This document shows, piece by piece, positions 16,845-57,119 of a stretch of DNA of 64,000 bases (position 1 is its first letter; every line of letters starts with the position of its first letter). The notes beneath the pieces were generated by a model, which saw nothing but the letters and a program-made list of their open reading frames with translations, was not told the origin of the DNA and did not search any database. A program made the position numbers and the translations under genes. This stretch comes from Takakia lepidozioides. Lineage: Eukaryota > Plantae > Bryophyta. The stretch spans positions 14,136,001 to 14,200,000 of the forward strand of contig CM060731.1 in the NCBI GenBank assembly GCA_030704615.1, given 5' to 3'.

Positions 16845-17072
16845 TAGTGGGTTTGGTAGGGAGGCTTTGGAGACCTATGAGCAAATGAAACAAGAAAGAA
16901 ATTTCTTTTTGTTCTTAAGGCCTGTGCCAATGTGACCAGGCTACAATTGTTTGCGTTGTTGTCAATGCATATGCAAGCTTGGCAGCCCTGGAGAAGGGCA
17001 AACAAGTCCGTGCTGACATAATTAAAGCTGGAATTGTTCTAGATATCATTCTGGAAAATACCCTAGTCGACT
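16845..17072 (+). pseudogene. PLS-class PPR fragment
   Basis: GFGREALETYEQMKQE...AYASLAALEKGKQVRADIIKAG...LENTLVD; related to the 19410-19790 copy. Confidence 0.65.
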
Positions 17073-28955: not shown

Positions 28956-31900
28956 TCAAGTCCCATGTAAAGCATTAGTGATGGCTGCAATGGTGTTTGG
29001 AGTTGTTCGGCAGCATCCGCCAATAAGTTGAGCGCCTGCATCACGCCAATCCGGAACAAATGACACAAAGTCTGTATCTGAAACCCCGGTAGATTCCTGC
29101 CATTGGCAACATGCACAACGTGAGAGAATGGATGTCCTGAGAAAATTACCACCTCTGCAACTTTCTCTCAAACTTGACTGCAACTCATATGGATGTTGTG
29201 ATGCAGACGGTTGTGAATTCATTCCTTTAACAATTAGATTTTCATTGTAGGGAAGGAATGAGTCAACGGAAGCTGGAATCATACAATCCACTCCTTCTTG
29301 TCGGCGTCCCAGCGTTCTCCACTGTTTGGATAGATCACTATAGTTTTTGATGTCACCTGTTTATTCACAGAAAGAAAAACAACAATCTTCATTAAATGTA
29401 AGCAATTCAGAGGAGTGCACGTAGAGTTATACAGAAAAAAGGGGAAGCTGTCCGAGGAAGACAATGGAGCCATGCAGTGAGAGTGAAAGTTCCATCTGTC
29501 ATCCATGTCTTTTTTCTCCTGTGAGTTCAGTATCAACTATAATTGGGTTCTGCAATGCAATCGTACTTACAGCACTACTTGGTCCAGTAATGGGAATTGA
29601 TACCTTGCGAGCAGCGCGAATCAGGTCAAGAATGAAACGGGGTGGAGTGCAATTGATGCCCACAGCAACCACTTTCTTACAGTTATCCGCCAACCTAACA
29701 CACTCAGCTAATGAGTCTCCTTTCACCACATTGATGCCATCTTTGGAGTTGAAAGAAATCCATGAAGGAATTTTGATGTCTTCTTCCTCCAGCAGCTCAA
29801 TCAGGCCCTGCATACAAATCGAGGATGAAACCTCCTGTTGTAAACTGCTTCATTTAAGTTTGACACTCCTCTGGTGAGCTCATGTTGATTATCGAGCCCC
29901 CAAACATCTAACATAAACAAGAAAAGCCAAAATATCCTGTCTCTTTCATATGGCCAGACAGTGCAAAGGGGTTGCCATGCTCCTCACCACTACAGTCTTT
30001 GGTAGCCACTGTAATCTGATCCATTGATACCTGAAACTTCATCTCTGAAAAGTGTTTAAAAGAAAGCAGACCTGGGCTTCCTGTTTGCACGGGATGGTTT
30101 CAAGGGCCAGCAAATCAGCCCCTGAATTAGCAAGCACCACCAGGCGGCCACGGTGGAAGTCCTTCAGCTTCTCTGTAGTCATATCTGGTCCGTAGTCCCC
30201 ACTGCACCCACCCTTGACCATTACTTTCAGTTCAAGTACGACCATAATCTCTAAGATTTTAGAGATCTGTCCTAAAGAGAGAGAATAGCACTAAATGTTA
30301 CTCTTCCAGCTGCAACTGTGTTCACTTCTTGCATGAATGCATCAGCGCAAATTAGACCCTGGAGTTAATAAACCTAATACATCGACAATCCACCTATGTT
30401 TACCTGCATTCCCATGGTTTGTCCTTTCTGTCATCATCTAACTAAATATAAATGGTAAATTTGATAAAGACTACATTCAATTGAAGCAATTAACTGCAAG
30501 AAAACTGATCTGCCCAGGACTAGAGTGACTCTCCTCAAATTATGTCGAGAACTATTACAAGAGCATACCTATATTCAGAGCCATCAGCCAAGTAAGCCCC
30601 ATAGCTACCAATGGAGGCACCGACAAGTGCGCGCCGATACTTCCTGAACTCCACACTCCCATTCTGCAATTGTTGCTGATATTCCGCCCAAAATCGATCC
30701 CGTTCCTCACAGGTGATGGTGATACTACTGCGGAGTAAAGCCTCTCCTTCCTCTTGTGACAATCCCCTAGATTGAAATCCCTGTAAGGTTGCCTGATAGA
30801 GATAGATAAAGGAAAGAAGAATATTTTAGAACAATCTCCAAGAAAAGGCTGGCCTGTCTTAGAAGTGAATAGCATAGCATAACCGATGATAGGGAGACAA
30901 GAAGGCAAACCTGGTAAGAGGCTGTTGCCAGAATCTCTGCACCTGCTTCAAGATATTCCCTGTGCACCTGTCAATCATTAAAATGCAAGAATCTTCTTAG
31001 AAGAAGCACATAAGACTACTTTAAAAGTGAATGCCACTCATCTATCAGTTCCCATGGATACCTCAGGTGGAGAGGACATGTAGGGCTGGTGCTATGACAG
31101 TCTCCGTTTGAAGTTTCCGTTAATTAAAGAGGAGTCCAGTGGCAGGATTGATGATTTGCATTGGACACAAGTCTGCTTCTATTCCTGCTGAGGTGGTTTC
31201 CAGGAATGTACCCGTTTTCACTTCCTTCAAAGTATACGCATTACTAGACACTTGTTTGGAAGAGAATGATGTTGCAGGCAGCAGTGTGAAACCAAAGGAC
31301 TTTAGAGGTCTTGAAGTAAGTAATTGAGGAGCAGCTGCATGGGATACATGTGATGCATTTAAGAGTTTGTTACTTCCATTCTAATCATGAGGGACTCTGT
31401 TTGTAATTTTCTGGAAGTACTTACTATCAAATAAAGGACGTCTAGTATTGGAGACGCAAACACCTTTCTCTCGCACATAAGCAAAATTTGGCAACTGTAC
31501 GCACAAGTGAAAATTGCGGGGATTGTGAACAACACCGTGATCCATGTGCATTGTAAATCCTTCTATTACAAAGAGGATCAAGAAGTTAGAATGTAATGTA
31601 TATGTCCAAATGAACCAGCTGGATATCAGAGATGGTGCGAACGATCCGTTATTCACGGAATGACACATTATGCAGAAAATGCGATACTGTGGAAGAAGAA
31701 GAATATCCCTGAAACATTGCTGGAAACGTCTGTCATCCACGGAAAATATTTGCGTTCAACAACAGTGGAGGCAGGGAGAACAAAGAAACAGCTTACAACT
31801 TTCCGGACACAGTGAATTGCCTTCAATTCCCCCATAAATGAAGGATTTCAACGACAAAATCCTACGCCATTTTAGTCATGAAGAAAGCAACCTACTCGAG

Positions 31901-32107
31901 AGTAAATACCTTGCGTATGAGGTCGGGCATTGTAATTAAACACAGCGCGCTCCACAGCGGGTCTTTGATGTCCGCGCCATGTCGTTCCAACTGCGTTGCC
32001 AAGCCCCCATCGATCACTACACACCCTCCCGCCTGCTCCAGCAATTCATCGAGCCTATTGAAGGCATCATCGCACTCCTTCTCCGCATCTCTGTGCGCTT
32101 CTCCCAT
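28956..32107 (-). CDS. HMT: Homocysteine S-methyltransferase, 7 exons
   Basis: [77 protein letters not shown] (Zn-binding Cys). Confidence 0.95.
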
Positions 32108-32589
32108 CCCGGCCTCTGCACTGCCTGCTGCCTCGTGAGATGCATGAACGACATGCTGGCCACGTGCCAGCCTGGTGCTGTCTGACGTGGCGGGTGTGGG
32201 ATGAACGTATCAAGCTGGCTTACCCCTGAGAACATTCATCCATCTGTTATCCGTTCCGCATGCACTGCGGGGGCCAGTGGAGTAGGTCGCAGCTAGTAGA
32301 GAGAGAACACGTGTTTGTCTTAGTGATGGCAAAGCTGTACGTACAAGGTGGAGCAATGCCAAGTGGCAGAGAGATAACAGGTTCTGGTTATCACTATCAC
32401 TCTCTCTCGGTCGAGAGAATTGAAGCGAGATCTCAGGGAAATGGAGTTGCTATGGTGTTTCGCACTGTAGAAGTGTCTAGAAGAATACCGAGCATGTCTG
32501 CTCAAAAGAATCCAGATTGTAGCGAAATGAAACGTCATATGTTGAGATGCTCTCTAATCAATGATTCACCACACATCTCTACAACTCAG

Positions 32590-33623: not shown

Positions 33624-34339
33624 CAATCCACCCTTGGTATCACAAAAGTGTCCATCTTCCTAGCGGAAGGTAGTAACCCTCTGGGGTGAAGAGACATTAT
33701 AATTTACGCTTCCTTAGAGGCATCAAATATTATAGCATTCTCATAGGAAAAGTCTACAACACAACACGTGACAAATCCCTCATCAAATTACTATTATTAT
33801 TATTTTCCTTTAAGGATACCTGGGAGAGGGCCAATTTTTGGGAGATAATTTAGAATATAATTTTATTCTCGTCGACTGTTATTTTTTGGTTTAATAAAGT
33901 TAATAAGTTAATAAAAAAAAATTCTTAAGAAAAAGTTATCCGTTAAATCGAGGGGAATTCGGCCAGTTTCGCCAAAACAGAGGATGAGGATGAACATCCA
34001 TGAATATTCAAAAGAGAGCGGGCCCACAAGTACAAGCGGACAAAAATGGAAGGCGAAACTCAAAATAGCAAAATTAGGCAGCTCAAACGCATTTGCTCCC
34101 ATCTCCCTCGGCGCGGCGGCCCAACCATTGGACACGTGCACGAGCATGAGGCGACGCCCACGTTGCCATCACGTTGACCCTTCCCACTTGGCACACGGCC
34201 TGTATGAAAAAATTCTTCTCCTCCTGTCGAGTTACTTGATTACGTTAAAAACATGTCGTGCGCATACATATCGCTACACAACTACATCGCTGTCCAAACC
34301 ACACCACACATATATGCACAATAAAGTAGTCTGCCAAAA

Positions 34340-34774
34340 TGATAGAAAACCAACGAACACACTGTTTACACAAAACATGAAAACCAAACCATCACTTTTA
34401 GAAATAGTAGTCGAGCCAGGGGCACCCCAAGCTATGGGGACTCCACCCCACAACAACCTATACCCCTACATAAGCACACTAAAATCTAACCGCATGCAGG
34501 AGCTTGGTCGCGCAGGCTCAACTCGAGAAAGATGAGCCGCGCGACTGCCGCTCTCGTGAAGATAAGACGGACCAGGTGTCAAACTAAACTTGACACCTGA
34601 TTTAACACTTGACCTAAATCCAAGTGTTAAATACAAATAACTAGTTTTATTCTAGCTGTTTTCACACTGTGCTTATTTAACTTGACAGCTGTCGTGCGCA
34701 TACATATCGCTACACAACTACATCGCTGTCCAAACCACACCACACATATATGCACAATAAAGTAGTCTGCCACA
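34340..34774 (-). repeat. Full 3' LTR of the DNMT-Gypsy (TGTGG...CTATCA)
   Basis: TG...CA ends, adjacent PPT; 34340-34645 duplicated at 45686-45992 and 34690-34772 duplicated at 34254-34336. Confidence 0.85.
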
Positions 34775-35032
34775 ATCGTCCCCCTAGCTGTGGATAGGTC
34801 CTCTACCTCCAGATAGCTACAAGATGTAATAGCCACAGCCGTACTAAGTCCTCTATCACTGTCCCTATTGTACTCAAACTCTATAGACCAAGAGGCCGGG
34901 TACAAGAGTAGCCCCCATCGTTAGTCGCCGTCTTGCAATCTGTGAACTTGAGCCAGGATCTCGTGTGTTCAAGGTCTCCTAGTAGCTGGGCCTTGCGTTT
35001 CTTGTTAGCCTTCCATGGTTGTATCCACTCCA

Positions 35033-36416
35033 CTATCCAATGCAATGTGGACATAACCAATCCCCATCCGGAACCATCTCAAGAGGTGGAGTCAAGCATC
35101 CCATATGCCAACCTCTAGAGCATCGATCACACACCAGCATGGTGGCTGCCCCTTTAGCAGACCCACACAACATGCACCTCAAACCTGCAGATACCACTGC
35201 CAGGTTTGGGTCAATCCTGCCATCGACATTCGGAAGGTGACATGGCGCACAATTACGCACATGGTCCTTCCAAGTTATGCCATCCCGACCCTCCAAGACC
35301 AAGACGCCTGGGCAAGACCTCTCGAACCCTCAAAATAACACGTCCTGCAGTCACATCCAGGTCGTAGAGCAGTCTGCTGCAGATAGACATAGTCACCAGG
35401 GTTGAATCTCCGAACCCCAGGACGATAGCCCCCCACCACGTATGGTAGCATACCTCAACGTATCACGGTGTTGTGCAATGGCAAGGTTCTCGAAAGCCAT
35501 GGGCATGACTTTCTTGAACAACTCTGCACGCTGCTCACATGCACGTGCCCACACGTCCGGATCGTCAAGGTTAAGAACTGTAGCAGCTTCTCTGCGAATG
35601 GATGTAGGCAAATCCGGCTCTCGGCCAAAGAGAAGAAAGTATGGTGAGAAGGAGGCAAGTGATGCTTGCTTGCTGAACCTGTAGCCCATGGCTAACCAGG
35701 GTAACTGAAGGTCCCAATCTCCTAGGTGTCCCTTCTGCAAGCCATACTTGCGCAAACCCCTCTTTACTGTCTGAACAACTCTCTCTGCCAAGCCATCGGC
35801 CTCAGGGATGATCCCGAGAAGTGGTGCGGTGGTCTATCAAGGCCTTGTCACACAAAGCCTGAAACTCCCCCAAGAACTCTCTCCCTTGGTCCGTGAGTAC
35901 CTCAGCTGGAGCACCGAATCGGCTAAGCACACAATCCAAGAATGCATACGCAGCTCCCTCACTAGCCTTATCAGGCAATGGAACCAATTCAATCCACTTG
36001 GAGAAGTGCTCCACCATCACCAACACGTACTTGTTGTGGCGCATGGTCAGTGGCAACGGCCCTGCGAAGTCAAGACTCCACCTGTAGCCCAATCCCATGA
36101 TCGGAAGAGGGTGCAATTGTGGAGTAGGGGCGTTGAATGAAGCACGCACCCTGTCACACACCATGCACCTAGCCACAAATTGTTGCACCTCTGTGTGCAT
36201 ACCACGCCACCAATACTGCCCCTGCAGTAGACTATGAGTGCGTCGCACCCCAAAATGCCCCAACTCCTCATGGGCATGCCGCACTAACCGTGCCCGCTGT
36301 GTTGGGTGAGGCACAATCCTCACTCGACCATCCTCCCACACTCGGAGCAGGTGTGTCCCCTCCCACTTGAACCTCTTGGCTCGTTGTAGGATCCGATCCC
36401 TCTCCTTGGCAGTCAC
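35033..36416 (-). CDS. DDE integrase with C-terminal PHD finger (frameshifted)
   Basis: HAHEELGH...CMVC (HHCC), WSLDFAGP, LTDQGREF, ERVVQTVK; PHD CMLC...CDRC...WHMGC...WLCPHC (C4HC3). Confidence 0.92.
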
Positions 36417-36599
36417 AGTGGCTGCGTGTCTCCAGTGCGGAGGTAGTCCAACACAACTGAATCCTCATGTATATCTTTGGCGCCACCTTGCTCATTGCTG
36501 GCCTCAGGGTCCTCAGACACTTGATCTACAGTCATCCCTGTTGCAGGTCCAACCTGGCCTTCCGCTGCCAAGATACACAGAAATGCAGATGCATGCCAT

Positions 36600-37960
36600 C
36601 CGGGCACCATCTCCTCGTCCGTCTCACCATGCCACCGAGCTCCAGTGTCATCCTGTTGGCTCGTGCATGGATTGCGACTCAACCCATCTGCATTGCGATT
36701 GACCAAACCCGGTCGATGCACCACCTGAAAGTCATACTCTTGAAGGATGAGTGCCCACCGTGCAAGCTTCCCCGTAAGCTTGTCTGACTCCATCAACCAC
36801 TTGAGTGGTTGGTGATCCGTGACAAGGGTGAAGAGATTGCCGTATAGATAGCACCTGAAGTGTGCCACGGCCCACACTGCAGCTAAGCATTCTCCCTCAT
36901 ATGAGCTATACTTAGACTCTGCAGCATTGTTCGAGCGGCTAGCATAAGCCACTACGAACTCTCTTCCCTCATCATCCACCTGTGTGAGCACCGCTCCAAG
37001 CCCCAGCATGCTCCAATCTGTATGCAGCTGAAAAGACGCCCCCTGATAGGTCGTCTCAAGATGGGCGCCGAGGTCAACCTCGCCTTGAGCTCTTGAAAAG
37101 CTTGTTCTTGCTCATCTTCCCACTGCACTCCCTGGTCCACCTTGGTCAGCTTGGTTAGAGCCTTTGCAATGGCACTAAATCCCTTAACAAACCGTCTGTA
37201 ATAGTTTGCTAACCCCATGAAAGCTCGAACTCGGCTCACATCCGTGGGGCGTGGAACCTGTGCAATGGACTCTACCTTAGTCTGCTGTACCCCCCAATCC
37301 TCCAGGATATATCATGTGACCCAGATACTCAATCTGGTTGTGGAAAAACTTGCACTTGCCCGGATGTAACTTCAATCCGTGCGTCCTCAAGCGCTCAAAT
37401 ACCCCCTGAAGGTGTCTCTCATGCTCCTCCACCGTAGCACTAAAGATGATGATGTCATCTATGTAGCACCGAGCAAACTCCACCCCTGCTAGAATCCTGT
37501 CCATGACTCTTTGAAACTCAGCGGGAGCGTTTTTAAGCCCAAATGGTAAGAACCGCCACTGGTATAGGCAATCCTTCCCGTGCTCATTGATCCCCCAGAA
37601 TGCCGTCTTTTGCTTATCCGCCTCCTTGATCGGCAACTGGTGATATCCGGATCGTAAATCCAACGTGCTAAAGACCTTGGAATGCCCAATGGCATCAAAG
37701 ATCTCCTCTGGTGTTGGCATGGCATACCTATCGGACTTGGTCTGACGATTTACAGGCCGGTAATCACCGCACATACGTCTCTCTCCGTCCAATTGCCATA
37801 GACATCCTTCTTGCTGGCATCACTGTGGCTGAAGCATACTCTCCACCAGAGAGCTCCACCAAACCTGCCTCCCAGAGATCTTGAGTCCTCATCTGAATCA
37901 AAGACCTCTCCATGTCACTGTATCTATAGGGTCTCCGAAAGATTGGCGTGTCAGTGGCCA
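36600..37960 (-). CDS. Reverse transcriptase and RNase H (frameshifted)
   Basis: RMCGDYRPVN, STLDLRSGYHQ, LPFGLKNAP, CYIDDIIIFS, YLGH, FMGLANYYRRFV, ECLAAVWAV, VTDHQPL, NADGLSR. Confidence 0.95.
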
Positions 37961-38479
37961 ACTCAATACGGATCTCTTGACCCTTCAGTGCTCCCAAGTC
38001 CTTCAAACTGAAGGCAAAGCAATTCCTGTAAGCCCTCAGGAACCGCCGTATACGTCGTCTCTCTCCTCCGGTGACAATGGGTCCAATGTCAGGCTCCCAA
38101 TTGTCCTCCGTAACTGCAACCTTAAGTCCAGTGGGCTTAGAGGTAGAGGACGCGTCCCGTGGTTGCTATGCTGCAACCTCTTGAGCAGTACCCCCTTCCT
38201 GCTCAGTCAATGACAAGGCCTCATCCTGCCCCATCATCTCATCATTGAGAACCTCCTCAACCCGAGAAAAATCCCCAACCTCATCCATCACAGCTGCCTT
38301 GGCTGCCAACTCCCTCTGAACCTCGAGCACCTCCCACGTGTGCCATGGATGTCTACACCCCGTGGTCCTCACCGGCTCGCCCCCACTCGCTGCCTGTACC
38401 GTCTCGGTAGGCAGAGAGACCATGAAGGGAAGTGCACTCCGCACTCTACGTTGCTCAGCCATAGCCAAGCTGATAATCC

Positions 38480-39430
38480 AGGTCAAGCAATTGAGATCCA
38501 TTGCTTGCCCCAACACCTGACGACGTGATGCCTCAGAAAGAGAAGGCACCGCCGTGGTCCAGTGGAAAACCCCATAGCCCGCTCTCGCTCGTCGGCATTA
38601 GGCTCCACTAACTGCTGCAACTGAGCATCCCACAGGAGGCCAGGTCCACCATCCCGAAAAGCATGGGATCCTGGGAAGCTGAGCAGTGTAGGTAATGCTG
38701 CTCGTGGTTGACCCACCCTGTTGACCACTGCCAAAGGCGAACGGTCATCGTGTCTCACACGTTGAGACTGCCTCCCTGTGTCCAAAATGCCATCCACGGT
38801 GAGTGTGCTGGCCGCTGCACCCCCATCAAATGCACGCTTGAGCAGTGCGGGTGGCATCAAGTTAGTCCACCAAAGCCGTGGACGATGAGCCCGTGACCCC
38901 ACTGCAGCTGCATCCAGCAACACTGCTGACCCAAGCCACGACCGGACTTGATGCACACTGGCCATCACCCTGGCCCGAGAATCACCCATCAGGCACATTC
39001 TCCAAGATGTATGCTGGAGATACAGCTTGATGAAGCTGCAAGTGGCGCAAAATCCGCACCATCTCCCAAAACAGACCCGTCCTCGAGTCTCGCAATCCAT
39101 TGCCATGCCCGGCTGATGAATGCCCTTGGCAGGGCCAACCTGCCACTACCAGATCAATGGAGCCAACCTGCTCCAAATCCTGCGCCCCCAGCAACGAAAT
39201 GTCTGCTGGCAAGGCTTGTTGGTATCCACGAACTGCAGACACTGGCAACAAGCAGGGTACTGCTGTACCAACTGAGCAACATGGCGCAGTGAGACGCGTC
39301 GTGCAGTCTCATCCCTCTCCACATACAGGTAACGTCGACCGTACACCTGCCTGTAGCACAGCAGCCAATCCGGTGCTGATCCCGCCAAACAAGTCCAGAA
39401 GGCAAATGCCTTCATCCGGATACTGCCACA
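38480..39430 (-). CDS. C5 cytosine DNA methyltransferase domain (DNMT3-like) within pol
   Basis: I LLDLFGGISTG, II YVERD, IV LVVAGWPCQG, VI ILENV, VIII AHRPRLWWTNL, IX ERERAMGF, X RRQVLGQAM; spread over frameshifted ORFs 39309-40493, 39146-39511, 38982-39251, 38483-39106 and 38166-38549. Confidence 0.9.
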
Positions 39431-39839
39431 CAATAGGTGTGGTATCCAATGGTGACAACTGAGGTGGTCCTGGTGCAATACCCGCACTCTCCTCCTCTCC
39501 TGACGGTACAAAAGCCTCTACCCAGGCTTGTTGCACCCGTCGATCAGCAACCTGCTGCAAATCCTTGCTCGTACCCCACAATGGAGTGTGAGCAACCATG
39601 GCAGGCAACTCCGCCATACCATGCATGTCATCCTGCTCTGCTGGAGGTGGCACATCCTCTGCATGGGCATTGCCTTCCAGCAACTCTCCAGGCCAACTAA
39701 CTGCAGCTGTAAAGGCGGCTAGTGTTGGCATCTTGCCCCGCTGGGCAGCCGCATACCCCCAATGAATGTCACAGGGAGCTGTGCACGACCATCCCTGACT
39801 GCCATCCAGGCCTGTAGGATGCTGACTCCTCCCAAAAGT

Positions 39840-42348
39840 CCAGGGTGAAGCCCATGGGTATAACACTGCCCCACCAACGAGGACATCGTAAGAGACCGCG
39901 TCTGTCACAATGGCCTTGGCTCGCATCACTGAGCCATCTATAGGATGATCCGGCTGCAGTCTAATGGCCAACTGATGCCGTGTCATGCCCCGAGCCTGCT
40001 CTGATCCTCCCAGAGATGTCTGTATCTGGAAAGGACAAGGCTCCATATCCGCCTCCATGAGGCCCAAACCTGCAATAGCAGCTCTGCCCAACATCAGTGG
40101 CTGAGCTCCCGAGTCCAACAAGACCCGCAGTGGCCGGTACTTCTTGCCTGCCGGTCCACTCAAAGTGAAAATGCCTCCCTGGTTGTCTAACAAGACAACT
40201 CCAGGTGTCACCATGGCGCGCTCAAAGGCTGGCCTAGCTGGCAGCTCCGTCAACCTGGCAGCTGCAGCTTGCCACGCAGCCGTGGCAGTCTTGACCCTCA
40301 AATCCGAGGATCCCTCTGCCACTACACCTTCCACTAACTCCGCAGAAGATGAAGTGACCTCCCCACTCTCACAGAGTGTTGCTGCTAGTCTGAACACTGC
40401 AGCTGGTCTTACCCCCGGCGTCGCAATCATGTTGCCGAGAACAGTGGGCCTGACACACAGAGGTGGCTGCCCCCAATAACACACCGGCTGCACTAGCCTT
40501 GGTAGCAGGTGTCAGTGCTGCACGTGTAGCTCTCCCCAATGGCATAGTAACCTCCGCCTCGGTAACAGTCGGGCGAGAACTAGGTGCCATGGATGGCGTC
40601 GACACAGTCTCCGCCAATGTGAATGACTGAGGAAGCCTCGCCTGACGGCTTGCCTCCCCACGCTGTGGATCCAATTCCACCTCTGCACCTCGTGGCTCAG
40701 GAACTCGTGCTGCTCCTCGAGTCACGGCTGCAGCAGACTCCACCTGCTCTAGTGGTAGTGCTGCTCCGCACATGAATCCCATGCCTCCCATATCTCCTCC
40801 CTCAGGAGCAGGAGGTGGACCATCCCGCCTGGGAGCCGGTACCGCCTGAGCTATAGCCATGGCAGCGAGCCTCTGCTCTAGCTGCTGAAGCCGGTTGGCC
40901 ATGCCTTGGTCAACACCCCTGACCTCCGCGTCCTTGGCCATGTGGAGCTTGCCCTTGGCCTGCACCTCGTGCCCGACCACCTCGTCCTCTTGGGCTGGTC
41001 CACCTCGCCCCCGGCCACCATTGTTCCCTTGGAACTGGCCTGGGCGCAACTCAGGATGCAAGTCATAACACTGGGCATCTCCATGCCCATACTTGCCACA
41101 ATGCCCACACTGCAACTGTGCAGGCTGTGCTTGTGCCGGCCTTTTGCCACTCTCTGGGCAATCTCTCTTGACATGGGGTCCTCCACATGTCCAACATATC
41201 ACCCCTGGTTGCTGTTGGCCTGCAAAAGATGCCACGGGCCTCTGCACCTGAGGTCCCTGTAAGCTCCATGGAACTTGGGCTGGGCAACCTTGCCCCCCTG
41301 ACCACGCTGTTGGCAGTCCTTGTGCCTGTGGGCTGGCAGCTGCGCCTCGTGCAGGCATGTCCTTGCCAAATCCAATGGTAACAACTCGCTCCTCCACCAT
41401 GTTGAGCTCAATCCGCTCAGCCAGCAGAAACACATCTGCTAATGTGGGTTGGGCTGCTTGTAACAGGGTTGCATCTCGCACCCTTCTCTGAGCTCCTTGT
41501 CCAGAATTCCATACCAAAACTGGATTGCCTGAGCTTCAGTAACCCCTTGGGTCACACTTATCAAGCGCCTCATACGAGTGTACGCCTCTCGCAGGCTCTC
41601 ACTGGGTTTGCGCTGGAAGTCTTGCAAACTTCGCAGCTTCTCTGTCCGTACACCTTGGTAGTTCCTCCGCAACTCCTGGAAGAACTCCACCACCGGGTTG
41701 AATCTAGGCACATGTGTTGTAGTCGTGGCAGGAGGAGTAGTAGCACACTTTTGAACTGGTACCACCTGCAGAAGTACCAGCACTACTTGCTCCACTACTA
41801 GTGCTGGCAGTGGGAGCTATTGGTACTGATGCAGCTACTGGTCGCGTCGTGCCTCGAGTAATGGAGACGTAGTCAGGTGACCAATACATCCTCCACTCCT
41901 CAATCTCTGCTTCATGTCCTCGCCTGAACTCGTGGTAATCGTCCATAGGCGGGCCTTCCAAATGCTGGAACAGTCCCTTCCACGCCATGAATGGGGTGAA
42001 TAGCTGTGGATTGCGCATCTGCTGCAAATCACACCAGCTGTCGAACTCCTGGATAAAGTCATCCAACTCGATTGTGCCCACAGCTCCAGAGTACCTACGA
42101 GGCCCCTTGGTAGCTCCATACATCTCCTCCATGTCGTCCCACAACAATGGCGAATGAAAGTGCACACCTGTTGATGAAGCCTCCGAGTCTGTGTCTGACT
42201 CTACAGTAATTGAGGGTGGCGGTGAAGGTGGTCTGAACCGAATACCTCGTCTTGTGAACCCACTCTCACTGTTACTGCCTGTAGCCGTACTCCCCTCAAA
42301 ACCCTTGGGTAACTCCGTAATGACACTCACAATGTGCACCTCCTCCAC
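39840..42348 (-). CDS. Gag (two CCHC knuckles) and aspartic protease
   Basis: Retrotrans-gag-like helical region, CWTCGGPHVKRDC, CGHCGKYGHGDAQC, protease VLLDSGAQPL. Confidence 0.88.
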
Positions 42349-42865
42349 GTGACACTATAAGGCTCTAGTACTAATCTAATAGTGACACGGGTGGGCACCT
42401 GTTGCAGTTTAAGGGTCATATCCCAATGGCTCAGGGCACCTGCACCTGCATCCACCGCAAGAACTCCTATGGTTGGCTGGTCATCAACCCAGCCTCACCA
42501 TAGAAGAAACACTGGTGGTCTTGCTGGTCATCACTCCAGCCTCACCACCGACAGCATACTCTAGGATTGACCGGTGATCAAATCCGGCCTAATCCCTATG
42601 AAAGCAAGCGCCCACACAAAACCAACATGGCGCACAGTCAAGCATGCAGGTGTTGGGGGGGATCCAAACACAAGAAATCAAAACATCAACACCCCCACAC
42701 CAAAATCCAGCTGCAATGCTGATCCTGCAGAATATCCCAGCCCAAAACCCCGGACTGACTGGCCTCACCAAGAGAGGCTTTGGCAACTACAAGTACAAGG
42801 TAATGAAAATAGTACAGAGATGGAGGGAAGAATAGAAGCCCGCCCAAGCAAGATCTAATCCTGAT

Positions 42866-43614
42866 CTATGCTATCAACTGCCAGACTTCTCTCAAAGTGC
42901 CTCGCTCTGCATGATGGTAAGGTGTAGGAGGTATATCTATGTCCAGAAACCTGCCACTAACCTTGTCCCAAGCTACAGTAGCTCGCTCTAACCAACCCTC
43001 CTCCTCTTTCTGCCAGGTAGAGACAAAGCAATACTCCCCTATCTCCCGCTCACTGAACACTAAAGAAAACAAAGGTAGGGTCTGATAGTCTCTCAACTCG
43101 AAAGCTTTGAGACGGTTGCGGGTGTCCTCATTGCGAATGACTGCATCTCCTTCACGCACAACAAACATGTCATTGCTATGAACCCCCGCTCGTGGTTGCC
43201 CTGTGCAGAGCGTATCCGGCTGCAACCATGTCTGATTGCACAAACTTGTGTAGCTCCTGCTCCTCTGCTCCAGTACACCACGGCCTTGTGGCTGAACACC
43301 TTGGTCCCCGGGGCTGTCTTTGGCTGTGTTCCAAGCCTAGCTTTCACCCACTTTGGTATTTCACCTACAGCTGCAGAACTGCTGGCTCCAACAGAGTTCT
43401 GACTGTCCAAGGCGATATTGAGGCCCTCAATGCCAACTACAGCAGTCTGTTGTCTACTGCTAATGCCTGACTCCCAGTATGCAATCAACTCGTCCAACTG
43501 TTCTCCACTCAAATCAGTCTGAGTTCCTTGGGAAACATAAATCCTGTCCCCTTGTGTGCACAGGCTAAGAGAAGAGACCTGCCCTTCAATTACGTCCTCA
43601 TTTCCCCCAGCCAT
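42866..43614 (-). CDS. Unknown ~250-aa ORF (one frameshift) upstream of gag inside the element
   Basis: ATG-initiated ORF 43093-43614 overlaps ORF 42866-43243 on the same strand as gag; no recognised motif. Confidence 0.5.
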
Positions 43615-45685
43615 ACAAGGAGTACATCCACAATTTGTCTCTCATATAGACCACACACAGGTTCTAGAGACAGGATTGTGGATCTTTCATGGCACACTCA
43701 CACTCTAAAAATTCCATAGATTTTTAGCAGAGTCCCAAAAAAAAAACCAGGTCTAGATAGGTAGATTTCCCCTTTCTGCAGCTATCCCTCAAAAACTGAG
43801 TCAAACGGAGCTCATTTGACAAAGATATGACCAACCAGGCTCTAAATCACTTAAATTAGATCAAAATGGCTTTTTTTTTTTTTTTTTTAAAAACACCAAA
43901 ACTTTTTCGCCATTAAAAACTGCTCCCTTCTCCATTGCTTTTCTGCAGTGCACAGGTGCCGACATGTTTTCATCAATATCTTTTGTCTTCTTCGCTTCGC
44001 TTCCTTGCTGTAGCTGTTTCGATGGCGTTTGTAGCAGGTTACTCGAAGGCTTTGAAAACTGGTTTGGCGGTAGACGCCAGAGAGGCATCGTCAGCAAAGG
44101 CTTCGTCGAGCCGAGCTCCAGTAGATGCAGTTCACTTGACGGAGGGCTTACTTGGGAGAGCCAGCTTCATCATCCACAGGAAGTCGTCTTTCTCGCTCTC
44201 CTTTTGTAGAGCCATCACTGACGGGAACCTCTGTCTGTTTTTCTAAACCTGCCAGGCACAGTCTAAAACCTTCATGTGCGATTGCCAAGGCTTTTGCTGG
44301 GGAAGAAACCCGGACTGGAATGACGATGACTATATTGTGTTAGGCTTGGCTCACTGCTTTCAAAAGATGATGATGGAAAGCGCAAGGACGCATTGATTGT
44401 GGAGCCCGTTACTGCTGGGACCTTTGAGTGTATGGAGAATGTGGGTAGAGCCCCCAATGGCCGCATTCAACCGGCTCTTCACCTCAGCTACAAGCCAGCT
44501 GCCCCCTAAGCCAGGTTGGCACCAATTATAGACTAGGTTGCACACAAAAACATCGGAGGAGTGAACTTCGTTCCTTTACTCAACTGAGCATCACCAGTCG
44601 CAATCCATAGCAACAACCCTTTCATAAGGAACAGAGACACAAGTCTCCAAAGAGCACATGAAACCACATGCAGGTGAAGGTGATCTGCCTACAATTTGCT
44701 TGTCACAACTTTGCTGCAACAGACACAGCATACCCATTAGACGGAGCAGAAATGGTCCTGTGCATTTCAGAGCTTTCCTGGAGAACTCGTCTGACCATCC
44801 TTCTGCTACAATTGTGTATGTTGTTTGTACTAGATTGTCGCAGAAGCTACCTGCAAGTGAACAGAGTGGCATTTAGCATTTGCAGCTGACCCTACAACCT
44901 CGCAAGCATCTTGTCCAGAAAGCTGCTGTATTCGGTAAAGCCACGTTGCTAATGTGAACTGCCTCCACAGCTGAGCCTCTGTTGCCGTCTCAATGTCATC
45001 CCCTCCACGCTCCCGGCATGCCCACCAAATGAACCTGGAAACAATATCGATCACCCGGCAACGTAACCTTGCAGTTTAAGCGACTGTCGACCATATAACG
45101 GCTAGCCAGTCAACGCAATGAGCTCCGCCCTGCTCTGATCTGCCAAAGAATCTTCACCTATTCTTATCCTTTGCACTCCCAGGGTAAGACGAGACGAGCT
45201 AGTCCGTGGCCTGGGCTCCCTCCGCTTCAGGATTGTTGATCAAATGCAGCACCTTGGTTGTTGACCGGTCATATTCCCCGTGTCCTAGTTTGGACTCCAA
45301 GACTGCAAGAGTGCAGGTATCAGCGTTCACAGCTTGCCAGCGCTACTCCATGCTGCACGGTAGAGCTTCTCTATAAGCTTACTGGGGAAACAATCATCCA
45401 GCTTCAAGGATCACGCATAGGTGCCAACTAGCATTTGCTGCTGCATTTTTAAGTCTCTCCTCGTGTACTCCAAAGCCTCTGGTGACTTGGTAGCTTTAGC
45501 GACTGCAATAACAGTGGCGGCTCCGGCATCGTCATCCTCCAGGCGTTTCAGGGCACGCTGAATCTTGTGATCATATTCAATGATATGCTTCTCAAACTAA
45601 GCACTACTTTCACACAGGTAATCTTGCAAGTGCTAACCCTCAACTCCTACCTTGCACTCACAGGTAAGAGATCATCTTTCTCGAG

Positions 45686-45992
45686 TGATAGAAAACCAAC
45701 GAACACACTGTTTACACAAAACATGAAAACCAAACCATCACTCTTAGAAATAGTAGTCGAGCCAGGGGCACCCCAAGCTATGGGGACTCCACCCCACAAC
45801 AAACCTGTACCCCTACATAAGCACACTCAAATCTAACCGCATGCAGGACCTTGGTCGCGCAGGCTCAACTCGAGAAAGATGAGCCGCGCGACTGCCGCTC
45901 TCGTGAAGATAAGACGGACCAGGTGTCAAACTAAAACTGACACCTGATTTAACACTTGACCTAAATCCAAGTGTTAAATACAAATAACTAGT
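45686..45992 (-). repeat. 5' LTR of the DNMT-Gypsy lacking its first ~130 bp; PBS at 45672-45685
   Basis: Direct repeat of 34340-34645; PBS complementary to 45868-45882. Confidence 0.9.
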
Positions 45993-46202
45993 GGCGCCAA
46001 CACTCATTCCTCAATGGCAGTCTGCAGGGACAACAATGTTTGCATGAACAGAAGGGTGGACACAACGATGGTGTTAGTTACTACTGGGCTAAGAGTCAGC
46101 TAACAATTGTCGGACAATAGAATGTTAGCCACACAACAATACTGAGCATAGCTTGATCGAGGATTAGAGGGTTTTAAGTAACACCAAATCGCAACTCAAG
46201 AA

Positions 46203-47983
46203 ATGCAAACACCTGACATTTGGTGAAAGCCTACGAACCCAGGGTTGCATTGGTGTTCCCTTAGGTCTGGTTTGCTTGCAAGCTAGAGAGGAAACATCTG
46301 CTCAAGTAAAGTTTGAGTCCATCTTATGCTTGGATGGCAGGCTGGAGGGGAAAGTAGCAGTGATAACAGGAGCAAGCCGTGGCATTGGAGAGGCCACAGC
46401 CCGGTTGTTTGTTGCACACGGAGCAAAGGTGGTGATTGCTGATGTGCTAGACGAGCTGGGTCAGAGTTTGGCAGAGGAACTCGGAGCAGATGAAGCACGC
46501 TATATCCACTGCGATGTGCGCAAGGAGAGTGATGTTGTTGCAGCTGTGGACTTGGCTTTATCCACATTTGGGAAGCTTGACATCTATTACAGCAATGCAG
46601 GCATAATAGGTCAGCATCTCTATCTATGTTTGACAAGCTGACATATACTACTTTCATGTTCAAAGCTATCTGACTCTCCTTGCAAAAGTGAAGAACTATC
46701 ATGTGATGTGGCATCTCTTTCCTTAGCAAAGAGATCAAAAACTCTCTACCACTCCTAGAGAGATTAGAGTGTGGTGGGTATTCCCTAGAGCGAGGTCCAT
46801 TGAAGGCAAAGATGAAAAATTGCACATCTCCTACCACCGAATCTTAAACCCTTTGTCTCTCCATTTTGTCTAGAAAGTACCCAAAATCTAGAGAAATACA
46901 GAGTCAGTTCCTAGAGACGTTTGCCAATTGCAGAGACTCACTTCTCTCTCTCTTCCTCCTCCCCCAAGTGGCATGTTCAACTCAATTCTGCCTCTAATGA
47001 TAACATTTCTAGACATCTCTCCCTTCTCGATGTGACACATCCAACTCATTTCTACCTTTGGTTGGCGCCTTCAGTCTCAGTAGCTGGGTTTGCAGACTTG
47101 AACATCGACGATTATGAGGCAGTATTTGCAGTGAACGTGAGGGGCACAATACTGGGCATCAAACATGCGGCAAGGGTACTGAAGGCAAGCAAGCATGGAA
47201 GCATTATTCTAACAACAAGTATAGCTGACGTGTTGACTGCCTTGGGACCAAGCGCCTATTCCATTACAAAGCCGCCGTTGTTGGTGGGTGCTCTCCTTTT
47301 TTCTGTTGGTTATGATATTATCAGTAACAAGCCTGGGGTGTGGGTGGGTCACACACACCAATGGACTTCTACAGCAACCACCGCCCCTTGTTTGTTAGAA
47401 ATGAGATTGCCACTCTAAAACTCATGAATGAGGTGTTCTTTTGCCCAACAGAAAAGTGCGTCGACCTTCCTATCAGCTCCAACGTATCAGTATCTAATGG
47501 AGTCTCATTTTATCCACAGGAATAGCTGGGTCAGCGGCGTTTGATCTACGGGGGCACGACATTCGCGTTAACTGCATTTCACCTGGTGGCTTACCAACCA
47601 CACTGTCACTTAATGCAGTGAGGTCAGTGAGGAAAACTTTCATTTCAATTGCCATGGGAATTCTATCACCTTGGACAAAAAGGATGCTGATAAGGATAGT
47701 AATGTTTCTTAGAGATCCTTCTATTTGTGTATAGCCCACTAAATGTAGGTGGGGGTGATACAGGGAGTTCGACCCAGGCATGACGATGCCTATGCTGGAG
47801 GAGAAAACCGCCAAAGGTAATGAGGGGTCTCTTGCTGGCAGTAATTTTCAGGTGAAAACAGTTGCAACTACTGCAATGTTTTTGGCCAGTGACGAATCGT
47901 CATTCACAAGCGGCCACAACTTGATGTTAGATGGCGGGCTCACTAGCTGTCGAACGATAGAATCACACAGATGGAATGAGTAA
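46203..47983 (+). CDS. Classical short-chain dehydrogenase/reductase (ABA2/TS2-like SDR110C), 1-bp frameshift near 47270
   Basis: RLEGKVAVITGASRGIG, CDV, NAG, VNVRG, YSITK, IRVNCISPG, FLASDESSFTSGHNLMLDGG. Start exon uncertain. Confidence 0.85.
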
Positions 47984-49149
47984 TGGTGGAGGACAATATT
48001 GTGTGTGGAGGATTTGGTCATTTTGTTCATACCAGCGAGAAGGTGACCACCACACGCAAGACACCAGGCTGTTTGGTGTACGCTGCTAAAGCCAGGGTTG
48101 TATTTCCCCAAGCCAGAGTGGCGCCTGAACGAAACATATCACAGTCCATAAAGGGGATTCCACGATTGAGATAAATCAATGGAGAGAGTATGGAGAGGAT
48201 GTTGATTCTTTCCCCGGTTCACAAGACTTGTTTGTCATGCTTTTCATGAAACGTGAGATGTTGGAGATGCTTGTCAGAAACCTGATTTCTCCGGGCCTAA
48301 ACTTACCACTAAGCATACAAAGATGGGGTTCTAGCATTCTGAAACAGTCAAATCTACCTGGCAGAGGATTGCTAAAGACTGTTTTGGTTCCACCAAGAAA
48401 TTACACATTAGTCTGGCCTTCTGAACTATGTCACCCGCTAATTATTCTCTACTAATCATCAAATCATGTCTGCCACTAACGTAGATTGGTGTTATGAAAC
48501 AAGTCATCTCTAACAGATCCGAGTAGGCTGAAGAAATTCTTTGAGCTAGCAATTGCCTTATCTGCAGGATGAAAGACACCTATCTCTGTATTATCCTCCA
48601 GAGGAAGGATGTTGGAGTGACAAGAGGAAAGAGTCATGGCTTGTCAGGGGATCAATTTCCCAACCTTGACTTTTTTAGTCCCTACAGAATGTTTTAGTTT
48701 GGGTCAAGTGGGAAGATGACATACAAAACCCAAAGTTGCATCCTTGTACAATACCTGACCTACAGGCATTTCAGAAGCTGAAAACCCATGCAGAACTGCA
48801 TCAAGCAAGTGACTTGAGCATATTTTCTGCATCAGACACTTCAAATTCTGATGGTTTCTTTTCCACATTGAGGACTTTGATGTTCCCATTGTCCACAAAT
48901 AATGCGTACCTGTAGGCACACATGTGACATGTTAGCTGCAAATTGTCCGAGCTCTAAAGGCAGTTATACTTTTCTTGGCAAGTGAACTCTTCGTATCAAG
49001 CCAATGAGAAAACTCCACTCGATAAAATTAGGAAAGGCGACGCTATGAATCTTTGAACATTCATTGAAAACAATCGTAAGGTACACGAAGGCCATGCCAT
49101 AATATTTACATAAATTTAATTTCTTTAATGCCACGCGCAAAGATAAATC

Positions 49150-52100
49150 ATGGTAATGGAAACGTTGAATTTGTGTGAGAAAAATGGTAAATAGGAAGAT
49201 GATCAGGTAATTTACATGCAAGGTATATGGGTTATGGTTTGTCCAATATGCTTCTGTGGATCCTGATTGACAACCATTAACAATTGCATTGGTCCAGATG
49301 TGGTCTAATTGAGAATCATAATCTGTTGTACTATTGGAAAAACTAAGTTCAAGGTTATAATGTTTCATATAATCTTGGAGTTTCTTGGATTCGGGGGATA
49401 GTTGCAACATATCTACACTGAAATCCCCAATAAAAATCATGGGACAAGATCGAGGAGCTTTGATGTAGAATTTAGTCAAAATGTGAAGGAAATCTTCTAA
49501 GTGCATTCTTGGAGGTTTATAAATTGCTATGACACGTAATGCTTTTCGTGTATTGAAGTTGAATGAAGCTGCAATAAATTCAGCACCATTATGTGTGCAT
49601 ATTTCATGGTGTGACAAAGTCATACTTTTATCATACGTTGTCATTGTGCCATGATTATCGTAACAATTAAATTTATCAATATTTATCAAATGTGACCAAT
49701 TTGTTGAATTATTTGAATTATTTATGCGGGTTTCGTTAAGGCATAGTATATAGATGCTTGAAGGTTATAATCTTTTGTTATATCATCATGATGTTGTTGA
49801 AGGGATCGAGTATTTAATGATTGCACAATAAGATATGATCCTATGAGGTGTTTGAAAATAGGTATGGTAATTCGTATTTAGCCGATGTCCGCAACCTTTT
49901 CATCTCATCAAGTACCGACTTATCAACTTGAAAATTCTTTGATTCCAAACGATTTAACAAGTACAAATTTTCTTTTGTGCGAATCCTAGATAATGCGGTA
50001 TAAGTTAAACCATGTTTTGTAACACCGGTAGGATCAAAGGCTAAACGGTCCAAAGTTAGTCCTTGAGCACGGTGAATTGTTTGGGCTGCTGCTGGTTGTA
50101 TGGGAAATTATATGCGTGTAATGAGATGATTAGGATTTTCTCCTACTTGTATTTCTTTTGCTATTTTTGTTAAAGGAGTCCATAACCTCTCAATGTTTGG
50201 ATGAAGGCTACATAAATTGTTATGTTTTATTCTTGTATATTGACCTATCCGAGGTAAAATAAAATCTATCCAAACAATTGATATTATAGATGAAATTTTT
50301 GTATAATTCTTGAATATACCTTCAGCACCGTTGACAAGTCCATCTTGAGTTTCGTAATTTCCAGCACATAATTCCACTAGCATATTTATTTTAAGTTGTA
50401 TCTCTTTATGTAAATCTGCAGTGTTACTTTGGATTATCAGACAAGATAAAACATAGAGGACATGTGTCGTGTGGAATATCTGTAGCTTTGAAAATCTGCA
50501 CCTCACCTGGAGTTTTATAAAAAAAAAATCATATTATGTTTACGAGTGTTATCATTTGTATAAAACAAGTGTGGGAATTTTGGATCAAATGGTGGTTGTC
50601 TATAGCAAGTTTTATTAATAAAATTGATGTCATTTTCTGTTTGTTGAGCTGTTCGAAATCTATAATGAATTTAATATCAGTTTGTCGCATAACTTGATGG
50701 AGTTCATAACATTTTATTTTTTCTTGCCAAAAATCTATACCTACAATGTCGAGACCAATTCTTTTAGATTTAAATACCCATGAATCACGAACAGGCGAGA
50801 CTTGATGGAAGTCGACTGTTATAATTACATCAAGATTGCCAAAAAAAAACATTATGAACACGTTTGATTATTCTTAATCTTCTATCTACAAATGCAAGCA
50901 TCCTATGACCTATAAGAGAAATTTCATCAAGCAACAGTAACTTCAATTGATCATTTTTTTTTAACGAGTGCGTCCTTTTTTACATCACTTAAGGATGTAA
51001 GTTGATCAAGACTCCTATTGATTGGTATTGCCAAACTTGAATGTATAGTTGATCCATCTATATTGAAAGCAGCTTTCCCAGTATAAGCCATTTTGAATAC
51101 TTTTGGTCTCAATGGATCCATTATTTTATCTTGTTTGACATAAAATCGCAATAATGCTCGAATGATAATTAATAATGTGAATGTTTTACCAGTAGCCCTA
51201 CCCCTGTGATAAATATATGCAACGGTTCATCAGGATGTTTGTTCTTTTTGTATAAAATATCATCAAATATGGCTCGTTGTTCTTCGTTTTAACTTCTTAC
51301 CATGAACGCAAAATTTTCAAAAGGTAAAATATCTTCGGTCATTTGTAATGGGTCCAAACATAACATATTAAAGTCAATGGTTTTGGTTTGTTTCAAATTC
51401 TCGAATGAAAGATCATATGGATCAACTCCGGTTGTATTTGTTTCCAATGAATTGTCCACAATTTCAATGTTTGGTTTTAAGCAATCCTCACGTAATATAG
51501 AAGGAAAAATGTCCATCCAAATTTGATTGTTATTCTCATTTGCTAGGTTGTTAGCCACTCCTTGCAATTCCTCCCATTCATTAGTATATTTGTTGTCACT
51601 TGAAAATTTGTACACATATTGACTTCGAACGATATCAACTTTTATTTTATTTTCTATATATGCGTCATGTCACGTTGAATATGAACATTTTTGTGAAATT
51701 TCTGAAATACGGAATGGAGAAAACAAAAGAAGTTGTTCTCTATAGTGATTTTTCGGATCACAATAACATTAAAATTAACCCAACGTAATATTTTTGGTTT
51801 TTTTACATCTTTTGTTGTTTTTCATATTGTATTGCCCAACAAATTATGATAATGATAGGTGTTCCAAATTGTCAGGTCTTCAAATACGTATCGATGCATG
51901 AACTGCATTTTACATCCGTGGAATCTAATGGCAAATCACGTAATATTATATGAGGTTTTAATACAAAAGATCTATTTTGTTCTTGTGATGTATTTATGAA
52001 ATTGAAGACCTTGAAGTATGATGAAGAGGCAATGATAATATAATGTAAACAGCAAGTTGTGCCGGCATTTGTTGAGCATTAAGAAATGCATTTCCCATTT

Positions 52101-56284: not shown

Positions 56285-56520
56285 ATCTTGATCGCAACAA
56301 GAACTATAAGCAGTACACGAAGAGAAAATAAAGAGCCTTTGTTCACCTAGTTAACTGCAACTCTCTTTATTGCAACAGGAACTACAAGCACACTAAAAAG
56401 AAAACAAAGAACCTCTATTCACTGAGCTCACTGCAACTCTCTTGATCGCAACAGGAACTACAAGCACACTAAAAAAAAAACAATGAACCTCTGTTCACCG
56501 AGCTCACTGCAACTCTCAAA
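56285..56520. repeat. ~75-bp tandem repeat (2-3 copies)
   Basis: actgcaactctc...gcaacaggaactacaagcacactaaaaa repeated. Confidence 0.75.
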
Positions 56521-56699
56521 CTTACCAAGTTCAACCAAGTTCACGAGTTCATCTCCACAAACGGTTTAAAAGCGTAGATGATACAACTTAACTTAATAGA
56601 AGAACTAAGAAGCTGTCAACTTTCTCTTATATCCAACAATTTATCAGATACCTCTATCTTCACCTGTTGGATATAACGGTTTTAGACCATGATATTAAC

Positions 56700-56955
56700 T
56701 TAGCAGTGCTAAAGATGGATGGTGGTTGTGCTTCATCCCAGGTGGGTGATGCATAGATTGACCATGGATTGAGATAACCAATGATATAGTGGGCAAGGCT
56801 AATGACGGCTTGTGGATTGATAAATCTAGCAGTGCTATTTAGATGGATGGTGGTTGATTTAGTACTTCATGGGTGGTGCTTAGATTGACCATGGATTGAG
56901 ATAAACAACGATATACTGGGCAATACTAATGATGGCTTGTGGATTGATAAATCCA
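56700..56955. repeat. ~125-bp tandem duplication
   Basis: tagcagtgct...tagattgaccatggattgagataa...ggcttgtggattgataaatc occurs twice. Confidence 0.8.
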
Positions 56956-57119
56956 GTTATCTTAATTGGTAAAGCACTGTTTAAGGTAACCAAGATGATA
57001 TATTCATCATGTATACAATATTGGTATTGATATTGATAGAATGAGAGGTATTAACCCTCATTTGAACCTTTTTTCTAGATTGATATTCGTGGGTGGATAT
57101 TTATGGGCCACAATGTATA

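Follow-up and report, generated by a model that had tools for sequence, protein, structure and literature searches.

The window, by which we mean the whole 64,000-nucleotide stretch of Takakia lepidozioides DNA analyzed here, contains an 11.7-kb Ty3/Gypsy element on its minus strand, with repeats spanning 34254 to 45992 and the order gag, protease, DNMT, stop, reverse transcriptase (RT), RNase H, integrase, and PHD finger. The gag region (40369–42354; PF03732, a weak match at E = 2.4e-4) is frameshifted, carries two zinc knuckles (41173–41196 and 41083–41109), and is 45 to 78% identical to that of the Marchantia protein P0005, the product of Mp_4g09160. It is followed, always on the minus strand, by an aspartic protease (39750–40190) with weak Pfam matches and conservation in homologues, a DNMT3-like C5-cytosine methyltransferase (38460–39400), a frameshifted RT (37280–38165; PF00078, E = 8e-34) with its YIDD motif at 37454–37465, RNase H (36600–37111; PF17917, E = 3e-36), a DDE integrase with an H2C2 zinc domain (35430–36340; PF17921 and PF00665), and a C-terminal PHD finger (35036–35180; PF00628, E = 1.4e-11). 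No tyrosine recombinase matched in the scanned frames of the window; the rve integrase is there instead, with its D, D, and E residues present (36060–36074, 35883–35897, and 35774–35791). Likewise, Pfam found no chromodomain after the integrase of the window element but the PHD finger, whose nearest solved relatives are CHD4, PHF12, KDM5A/B PHD1, ATXR5, DPF3, and PHF21A.

Upstream of gag, the leader has open frames in a high-copy part (42866–43641, minus strand, ~250 amino acids in total, at about one-third of the depth of pol), which matched nothing in Pfam, the related loci, or the stored proteins and for which the best Atlas score, 0.83, was not informative. A further minus-strand stretch with decayed frames (43900–45650) is low-copy, at a depth of 0.5 to 22 thousand versus 230 to 670 thousand on its flanks. 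It had no Pfam, locus, or stored-protein match and is missing from related loci; it is a candidate insertion or minority variant. Long contigs of run X7 match this stretch in part and then diverge. A true 5' end near 43850, where depth drops, was considered and rejected because depth recovers over the left repeat and the primer site after that repeat is conserved.

A short-chain dehydrogenase gene (46330–47418, plus strand) lies ~340 nucleotides from the left end of the element, and a host gene for homocysteine S-methyltransferase (28956–32209, minus strand) lies on the other side. The best named matches of an 80-residue exon of the latter were Ceratodon (68%), Sphagnum (67%), Calypogeia (65%), and Marchantia (64%), with Selaginella and seed plants ranking below the mosses and liverworts; a single exon of this kind points to a bryophyte-like land plant and no further. 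Elsewhere in the window are two gag relics of the DNMT-bearing Gypsy family (10210–10313, plus strand, and 19198–19302, minus strand; 82% and 69% identical in amino acids to Marchantia P0005) and a chromovirus-type Gypsy relic (11494–15847, minus strand; chromodomain PF00385, E = 2e-14) without CpG depletion, which served as a CpG comparator. Long inverted arms at 16039–17535 (280 nucleotides at 96% identity, plus inner arms) surround a PPR-like sequence that is found again near 19500; this is possibly a gene-carrying DNA transposon. An AT-rich Helitron-like relic (48964–54503, minus strand) gave a weak PIF1 helicase match and, by eye, an endonuclease-like frame. We also noted a Copia relic (60388–63657, minus strand), a LINE-type zf-RVT fragment (8546–9091, plus strand), a dispersed repeat in pieces at 2974–4998 and 59474–59732, and short tandem arrays at 56320–57670.

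The methyltransferase domain resembles DNMT3

The sequence-only reading had proposed a C5-methyltransferase between protease and RT, and every motif that it quoted was found there, on the minus strand and in the proposed order. Beyond the protease motif LLDSGA (40104–40121) come motif I (LFGGISTG, 39369–39392), motif II (YVERDE, 39308–39325), motif IV (GWPCQ, 39126–39140), motif VI (ILENV, 38994–39008), motif VIII (AHRPRLWW, 38867–38890), motif IX (ERERAMGF, 38567–38590), and motif X (LGQAMDL, 38493–38513), so that the order I–X is unpermuted and the catalytic PC, ENV, and RxR are kept. The motifs are intact in a domain with at least four frameshifts, near 39338, 39253, 38990, and 38557, and no premature stops; an additional indel at 38820 was seen relative to most other copies. 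The single-frame piece 38985–39308 alone matched PF00145 above the curated cut-off (E = 2.2e-13). With an X placed at each break, the window domain was identical to an unbroken homologue, P0002, at 241 of 322 positions (75%).

Fold comparisons were done on P0002 and not on the broken copy of the window. By sequence, its best PDB matches were DNMT3A (E = 6e-12), DNMT3B (1.4e-9), DRM (1.2e-8), and M.HaeIII (3.5e-4). An AlphaFold model built from an 84-row alignment (pLDDT 93) gave DNMT3A as the top Foldseek match, and in VIA-align DNMT3B (Z 28.8, rmsd 2.6 over 279 residues) and DNMT3A (Z 27.6, rmsd 2.5 over 269) ranked ahead of M.MpeI (Z 25.1) and M.HhaI (22.6), the margin over the bacterial M.MpeI being modest. 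P0002 is closer to DNMT3 than to DRM, DNMT1, DNMT2, DNMT5, or bacterial enzymes, and the DNMT3-like identity first proposed from motif wording holds by both sequence and fold, as a label based on best matches. At the sequence level we consider it confirmed that the window carries a DNMT3-like methyltransferase integral to a Gypsy element.

The window copy itself appears to be young. Its repeats are 98 to 99% identical. Compared with homologues, its Gag-protease-DNMT frame has 14 frameshift calls, some of which may be artifacts in the poorly conserved linker, and no premature stop, and the region from RT to integrase has seven frameshifts and no stops as far as the reference stays in frame. Decay is more advanced in the related loci, with stops in 29 of 31 DNMT copies. 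Contigs of X5 differ from the window by 0 to 1 substitutions but by 1 to 3 gaps per 240 to 450 nucleotides, and 6 of 12 listed indels fall at runs of at least four equal bases, versus 6% by chance; many of the breaks may be long-read assembly errors.

The domain is shared, selected, and abundant in the family

Sequencing-run contigs and metagenome loci served to assess the copies of the family. Twenty-seven proteins matched the DNMT piece, 26 of them from this Gypsy-DNMT family, and the named homologues were 12 from Marchantia polymorpha and one each from Sphagnum troendelagicum and Calypogeia fissa. We kept 80 of 82 metagenome loci found, and in the long loci the domains again run gag, protease, DNMT, RT, RNase H, integrase, PHD; the locus counts are not independent, because several loci are repeated assemblies of one place. 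Together with Closterium relatives, which share the DNMT-before-RT order, these copies show that the domain is no one-off insertion. That the window holds a DNMT3 gene captured once from the host, or a chimera made during assembly, can be regarded as refuted. Such an origin could account for the many indels of the window copy, but the domain is identically placed in Marchantia, Sphagnum, and Calypogeia and at dozens of loci, and it has no introns and no DUF3444. A contig from another organism also spans DNMT to PHD. This contig, from run X9, which bears another organism label, is 5009 nucleotides long, covers 34800–39718 at ~96% identity, and may reflect a close relative, a transfer, or a mislabel.

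Among 31 single-frame DNMT copies, the catalytic motifs are kept (WPC in 28, ENV in 30, and RxR in most), and the dN/dS ratio, far from the value near 1 that the sequence-only reading had named as refuting it, had a median of 0.18 in 56 deep pairs. Shallow pairs gave 0.50 to 0.62, as expected for dead copies, versus 0.34 to 0.52 for RT at equal depth. The pairs are not independent, and 30 of the 465 were saturated. In addition, across 84 divergent homologues, conservation is at least 90% at each of the P0002 residues C140, E183, and R225. This conservation bears on whether the domain is kept for a noncatalytic role, or as a brake on transposition that benefits the host, an idea raised in the accessible text of de Mendoza et al. 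(PMC5890265). The same text reports that the Klebsormidium Gypsy enzyme gave no methylation in yeast, a result that its authors call inconclusive, and such an enzyme without detected activity fits a brake or a noncatalytic role. The conserved catalytic residues and the strong amplification of the family in its host stand against both, and we regard them as quite unlikely.

Run X1, from the host species, shows the amplification: 95,697 of its contigs fall on the element. The summed depth was 1.05 to 1.06 million over DNMT bins and 0.91 to 1.11 million over RT bins, some 10^4 times higher than over the host gene beside the element (79 to 160). Summed depth is not copy number; it indicates that the family is very abundant in the host.

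A full-library search gave 269 clusters at E below 1e-30, in two layouts. In bryophytes and Closterium the DNMT comes ahead of RT, and in Scenedesmus, Haematococcus, and Cymbomonas the order is RT, RNase H, DNMT, integrase, PHD. The second layout was seen in P0154, P0199, P0332, P0338, and ~90 other proteins, sometimes with Tudor or G-patch domains, and the accessible portion of the literature searched contained no description of it. Quick trees of RT (96 rows) and DNMT (64 rows) both split the two layouts, the DNMT support of 90 being unstarred, and both grouped the window with bryophyte sequences (99). The DNMT tree had the second type thinned at random to 35 and contained element domains and one bacterial-type outgroup only, and the RT tree, a quick version with one outgroup, is of no use for the root or the order of events. 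The named matches included no vascular-plant homologue, most matches bearing no name, and no Klebsormidium-named protein was among the 30 looked up or the named search matches. A single weak match on a viral contig (L081, 39% over 64 residues) was set aside as probably an ordinary phage methylase.

A conserved stop ties the methyltransferase to the Gag frame

The methyltransferase had been described as lying inside pol. It does lie between protease and RT, but an in-frame stop separates it from RT and places it in the Gag-protease frame. In the window, this frame ends at a TAG (38166–38168, minus strand) about 100 codons past motif X, beyond which RT follows without a change of frame. With the following CAA CCA (the site spans 38160–38168), the stop matches UAG-CAR-YYA, a known readthrough motif (PMC3542737), and is a predicted readthrough site; L028 has the same sequence. 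A stop was present at the corresponding site in 43 of 46 loci having both sides. The context TA[G/A] CAA C[C/T]N was found in 37 of the 46, a decayed or shifted stop in six, and three were uninformative. The Marchantia proteins P0005, P0010, and P0012 and a further protein, P0018, terminate 78 to 82 residues past the DNMT. In some distant relatives, such as P0161 and P0339, DNMT and RT share one frame.

At most other loci the sequence is CAA CCC and then ATG, which is not the full CAR-YYA motif, and a restart is possible there. We favor readthrough over restart because the ATG, present in most moss-type loci, is missing from the window and L028. The conserved stop after DNMT and before RT puts the DNMT at the end of the Gag-protease product, and with leaky termination there, the methyltransferase would be as plentiful as Gag and would outnumber RT and integrase.

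The element has split, permuted repeats

The name LTR retrotransposon, used in the sequence-only reading, fits a Gypsy-type element but not its ends, which are split, permuted repeats and not plain LTRs. Read along the coding strand, the layout is A-coding-B-A-B, and in place of two complete terminal LTRs the copies have the ends A ... B-A-B or A ... B. On the minus strand, the left repeat A1 (45686–45992) is without the first 42 nucleotides of a full A, has six other nucleotides (45993–45998) instead, and is identical to A2 at 300 of 307 columns. Contigs of X5 and X6 run past 45992 into the part that A1 is missing, as loose ends that may stem from internal A copies. A2 (34340–34687) is the full unit and starts TGTC, and B1 (34690–34775) is identical at 85 of 86 positions to B2 (34254–34339), which forms the right end of the element and finishes GACA. 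A candidate 4-bp target-site duplication (45999–46002, identical to 34250–34253) is only suggestive in the window, because the left end is damaged. Related loci begin TGTCA and finish GACA, and among the seven with both ends, five have exact 4-bp duplications, one has a duplication with one mismatch, and one has none. The TGTC starts, the GACA ends, and the exact duplications together argue that these are true integrase ends. None of six duplications fit an NCGN target. The notion that repeat A is a small Helitron, with a hairpin and CTAG, was rejected, as related loci hold A in the corresponding two places.

A polypurine tract (34776–34789, minus strand; conserved as AGCTAGGGGGG in related loci) lies directly before B1, and the joints between the tract and B1 and between A2 and B2 begin B at the identical base. 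The primer-binding position right after A1 (45672–45685, minus strand) is not tRNA-like; it pairs with A, predicting Tf1-type self-priming. The predicted RNA 5' end that would serve as self-primer (45869–45882, minus strand; second copy at 34522–34535) forms a 14-nucleotide perfect complement with the site, versus 10/15 for the best control. Across 15 loci, pairing was 14 to 15 of 15 in four, 11 to 12 of 15 at the corresponding site in four, and above controls in none of the other seven. The eight loci that pair keep complementarity with a sequence different from that of the window, and a TATA-like box lies ~26 to 30 nucleotides upstream in loci with the pairing.

Between A2 and B1, the right-end motif abuts the left-end motif 2 bp apart in a palindromic junction, GACA-GC-TGTC (34684–34693), which is a predicted internal attachment site. 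The junction contains a CAGCTG palindrome next to a CpG, and the GACA-NN-TGTC spacing is shared by L004, L037, L051, L056, L064, and L073. A second element, at L030:16672–17324, has unrelated A and B repeats, again in a B-A-B layout, with a GACA-GT-TGTC junction. Within one copy the A and B pairs have aged alike, their identities being 98% and 99% in the window, 92% and 94% in L056, and 89% and 88% in L051.

The long form A-coding-B-A-B was found in six loci and the window, the short form A-coding-B in eight distinct loci, and the mirror form A-B-A-coding-B in none of 15 distinct left ends. Self-priming and the position of the polypurine tract imply that standard reverse transcription would give a repeat B-GC-A, of which the inserted form would be a circular permutation opened at the palindrome. 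On sequence grounds, the permuted ends, target duplications, and internal junction suggest integration from joined or circular cDNA. The simplest two-repeat circle model is left wanting, because it predicts the mirror form that was never seen, and retroviral integrases act on linear DNA, the circle-junction model having been abandoned for them (PMC11054761). We consider it very improbable that ordinary LTR elements gave rise to the long and short copies by recombining or inserting into one another, without any special route of integration: the eight short loci could derive from recombination between B1 and B2, but the copies have the integrase ends and exact duplications described above, and the long layout recurs across the six loci, the window, and Klebsormidium nitens.

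CpG depletion and the likely substrate of the enzyme

At four-fold sites of the element, C was found before G at 23 of 326 sites and before H at 153 of 587, a ratio of 0.27 (p = 2e-13). Two comparators in the same window, one of them small (34 sites), gave 1.01 (the chromovirus relic) and 1.05 (the Copia relic), and CHG showed no special depletion at four-fold sites. The decayed loci show a weaker signal, with CpG ratios of 0.77 for DNMT, 0.77 for RT, and 0.24 for RNase H. The depletion fits, without proving, the sign expected if each cDNA generation were CG-methylated; the same loss could result if host MET1 methylated a high-copy family. We think it somewhat better than an even chance (about 0.55) that in this family the enzyme is packaged and places CG methylation on the newly made cDNA of the element. 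The SymbioDIRS-Dnmt3 domains have been reported to perform de novo CG methylation in yeast (accessible text of PMC5890265).

The enzyme might instead act on host chromatin, at the insertion site together with the integrase-PHD protein or in trans. The element PHD resembles readers of unmodified H3 tails, which we take its nearest solved relatives to be; for animal DNMT3 that reading role is played by the ADD domain, and a Gag-level product could reach the nucleus. However, the stop and several protease sites separate the DNMT from the PHD finger, the CpG loss is found in the element itself, and the K. nitens methylome is described in the accessible text as ordinary and plant-like despite such elements (PMC5890265). 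Action on host chromatin is unlikely in our estimation, though we keep it in view.

We assign a slightly smaller likelihood to methylation governing a step of replication, such as which GACA-NN-TGTC is cut or the protection of joined cDNA, or to RNA being the substrate. Split-repeat ends and a DNMT co-occur both here and, in the accessible description, in K. nitens, DIRS elements of equal repeat layout are likewise described as carrying methyltransferases, the junction palindrome sits beside a CpG, and the missing mirror form demands some asymmetry. Against an RNA substrate, the fold of P0002 resembles DNMT3 more than it does DNMT2, which acts on RNA (Z 28.8 versus 21 to 22).

Discussion

The results above describe a Gypsy-type element of a land plant with an integral DNMT3-like domain in the interval from protease to RT, akin to the charophyte elements that the sequence-only reading had mentioned. 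The closest known system is KnitGypsy-Dnmt3 of Klebsormidium nitens (de Mendoza et al. 2018, PMC5890265), which, from the accessible text, shares with the window the Gypsy domains, an intronless unpermuted DNMT3-like domain, purifying selection, and the A-coding-B-A-B layout. The window family has a land-plant host and is far more abundant, K. nitens having 33 DNMT genes in all, and the Pol ORF of KnitGypsy-Dnmt3 is described as containing the DNMT together with RT and RNase H, whereas a conserved stop separates the DNMT from RT here. Self-priming, an internal junction, target duplications, and a PHD finger are not mentioned for KnitGypsy-Dnmt3 in the accessible main text. From sequence, the window element is well supported, as a structure, as a land-plant variant of this kind.

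Other systems share single features. SymbioDIRS-Dnmt3 and DIRS/PAT-type split-repeat elements are described as sharing with the window a DNMT3 domain in a retroelement and A-coding-B-A-B ends, but they use a tyrosine recombinase, whereas the window element encodes a DDE integrase and its family makes 4-bp target duplications (PMC5890265, accessible text). EpiLTRs of Cymbomonas and Euglena (bioRxiv 10.64898/2026.05.21.726589) are, from the accessible part of the preprint, likewise LTR elements with a cytosine methyltransferase and a chromatin reader; their DNMT is sister to DNMT4 and accompanied by DAM and a chromodomain, whereas that of the window is DNMT3-like and accompanied by PHD. The Chlamydomonas element Gypsy-7a_cRei has a Gypsy polyprotein with a PHD finger and no DNMT listed in the accessible text of PMC9940879, which cites REM1 among the PHD-bearing Chlamydomonas Gypsy elements. 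Host DNMT3 genes of nonflowering plants have an unpermuted DNMT3-type domain like that of the window, but they have a C-terminal DUF3444 and provide CHH methylation in moss, whereas the window domain is without DUF3444 and forms part of a polyprotein (Yaari et al. 2019, PMC6453930, accessible text). Finally, Phygy and Selgy share the 4-bp target duplication and Tcn1 shares self-priming (Neumann et al. 2019, PMC6317226). Phygy, however, has a tRNA-Trp primer, NCGN targets, and no extra domain, in place of a self-complementary primer site, Tcn1 has a chromodomain, and the accessible part of that paper lists all three without DNMT or PHD.

We envision the following cycle. The RNA would start in mid-A and prime itself at the site after A1. 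Most ribosomes would stop after the DNMT, and a minority would read through UAG-CAA-CCA into RT, RNase H, integrase, and PHD, leaving the DNMT in excess; the protease would then release it inside the particle. Reverse transcription from the polypurine tract would yield cDNA with the repeat B-GC-A, the ends of which would be joined (the A2-B2 joint), and integrase would cut the internal GACA-GC-TGTC and insert a permuted copy, with the PHD finger directing insertion via histone H3 tails. The new copy would arrive CG-methylated, host MET1 would keep the marks, and the lineage would be left with CpG decay. Taken as a whole, we offer only tentatively, and with the odds against it, the picture of an old green-plant Gypsy lineage, active in bryophytes with thousands of recent copies, that would prime itself, pass through joined or circular cDNA cut at the palindrome by a DDE integrase, package a DNMT3 via a leaky stop, and insert copies already CG-methylated, with a chlorophyte sister group bearing the enzyme between RNase H and integrase.

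DNMT-carrying retrotransposons have been described in dinoflagellates and one charophyte (PMC5890265, accessible text), and an opinion paper holds that land plants such as tracheophytes have no DNA methylases encoded by transposons, these having been lost in the move to land (PMC6338049). The accessible literature, outside of which lie most subscription journals, Repbase, and theses, contained no description of bryophyte elements of this kind; later papers say "streptophytes," and the accessible part of bioRxiv 10.64898/2026.05.21.726589 treats "streptophytes (Gypsy-DNMT3)" as already described. None appear in the accessible passages of reports on Marchantia methylation (10.1101/363937, PMC5784723, and 10.1101/2021.02.12.428880), hornwort chromatin (PMC10952607), the Apopellia genome (PMC12885004), Sarre 2025 (PMC12344493), and chromatin evolution (10.1101/2021.11.30.470311), though figures and preprint supplements may list bryophyte members. 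Against what could be read, several features are new: the family occurs in bryophytes and is highly abundant, a stop ties its enzyme to Gag, the element is predicted to prime itself and has an internal junction, and chlorophytes have a second layout.

These findings add unannotated DNMT3-like genes to bryophyte inventories, and with Marchantia polymorpha as a genetic model with methylation mutants, the use of the enzyme to the element becomes testable. The placement of the stop predicts the abundance and packaging of the DNMT, and the ends of the element point to a DDE integrase acting on an internal junction, a route that was dropped for retroviruses.
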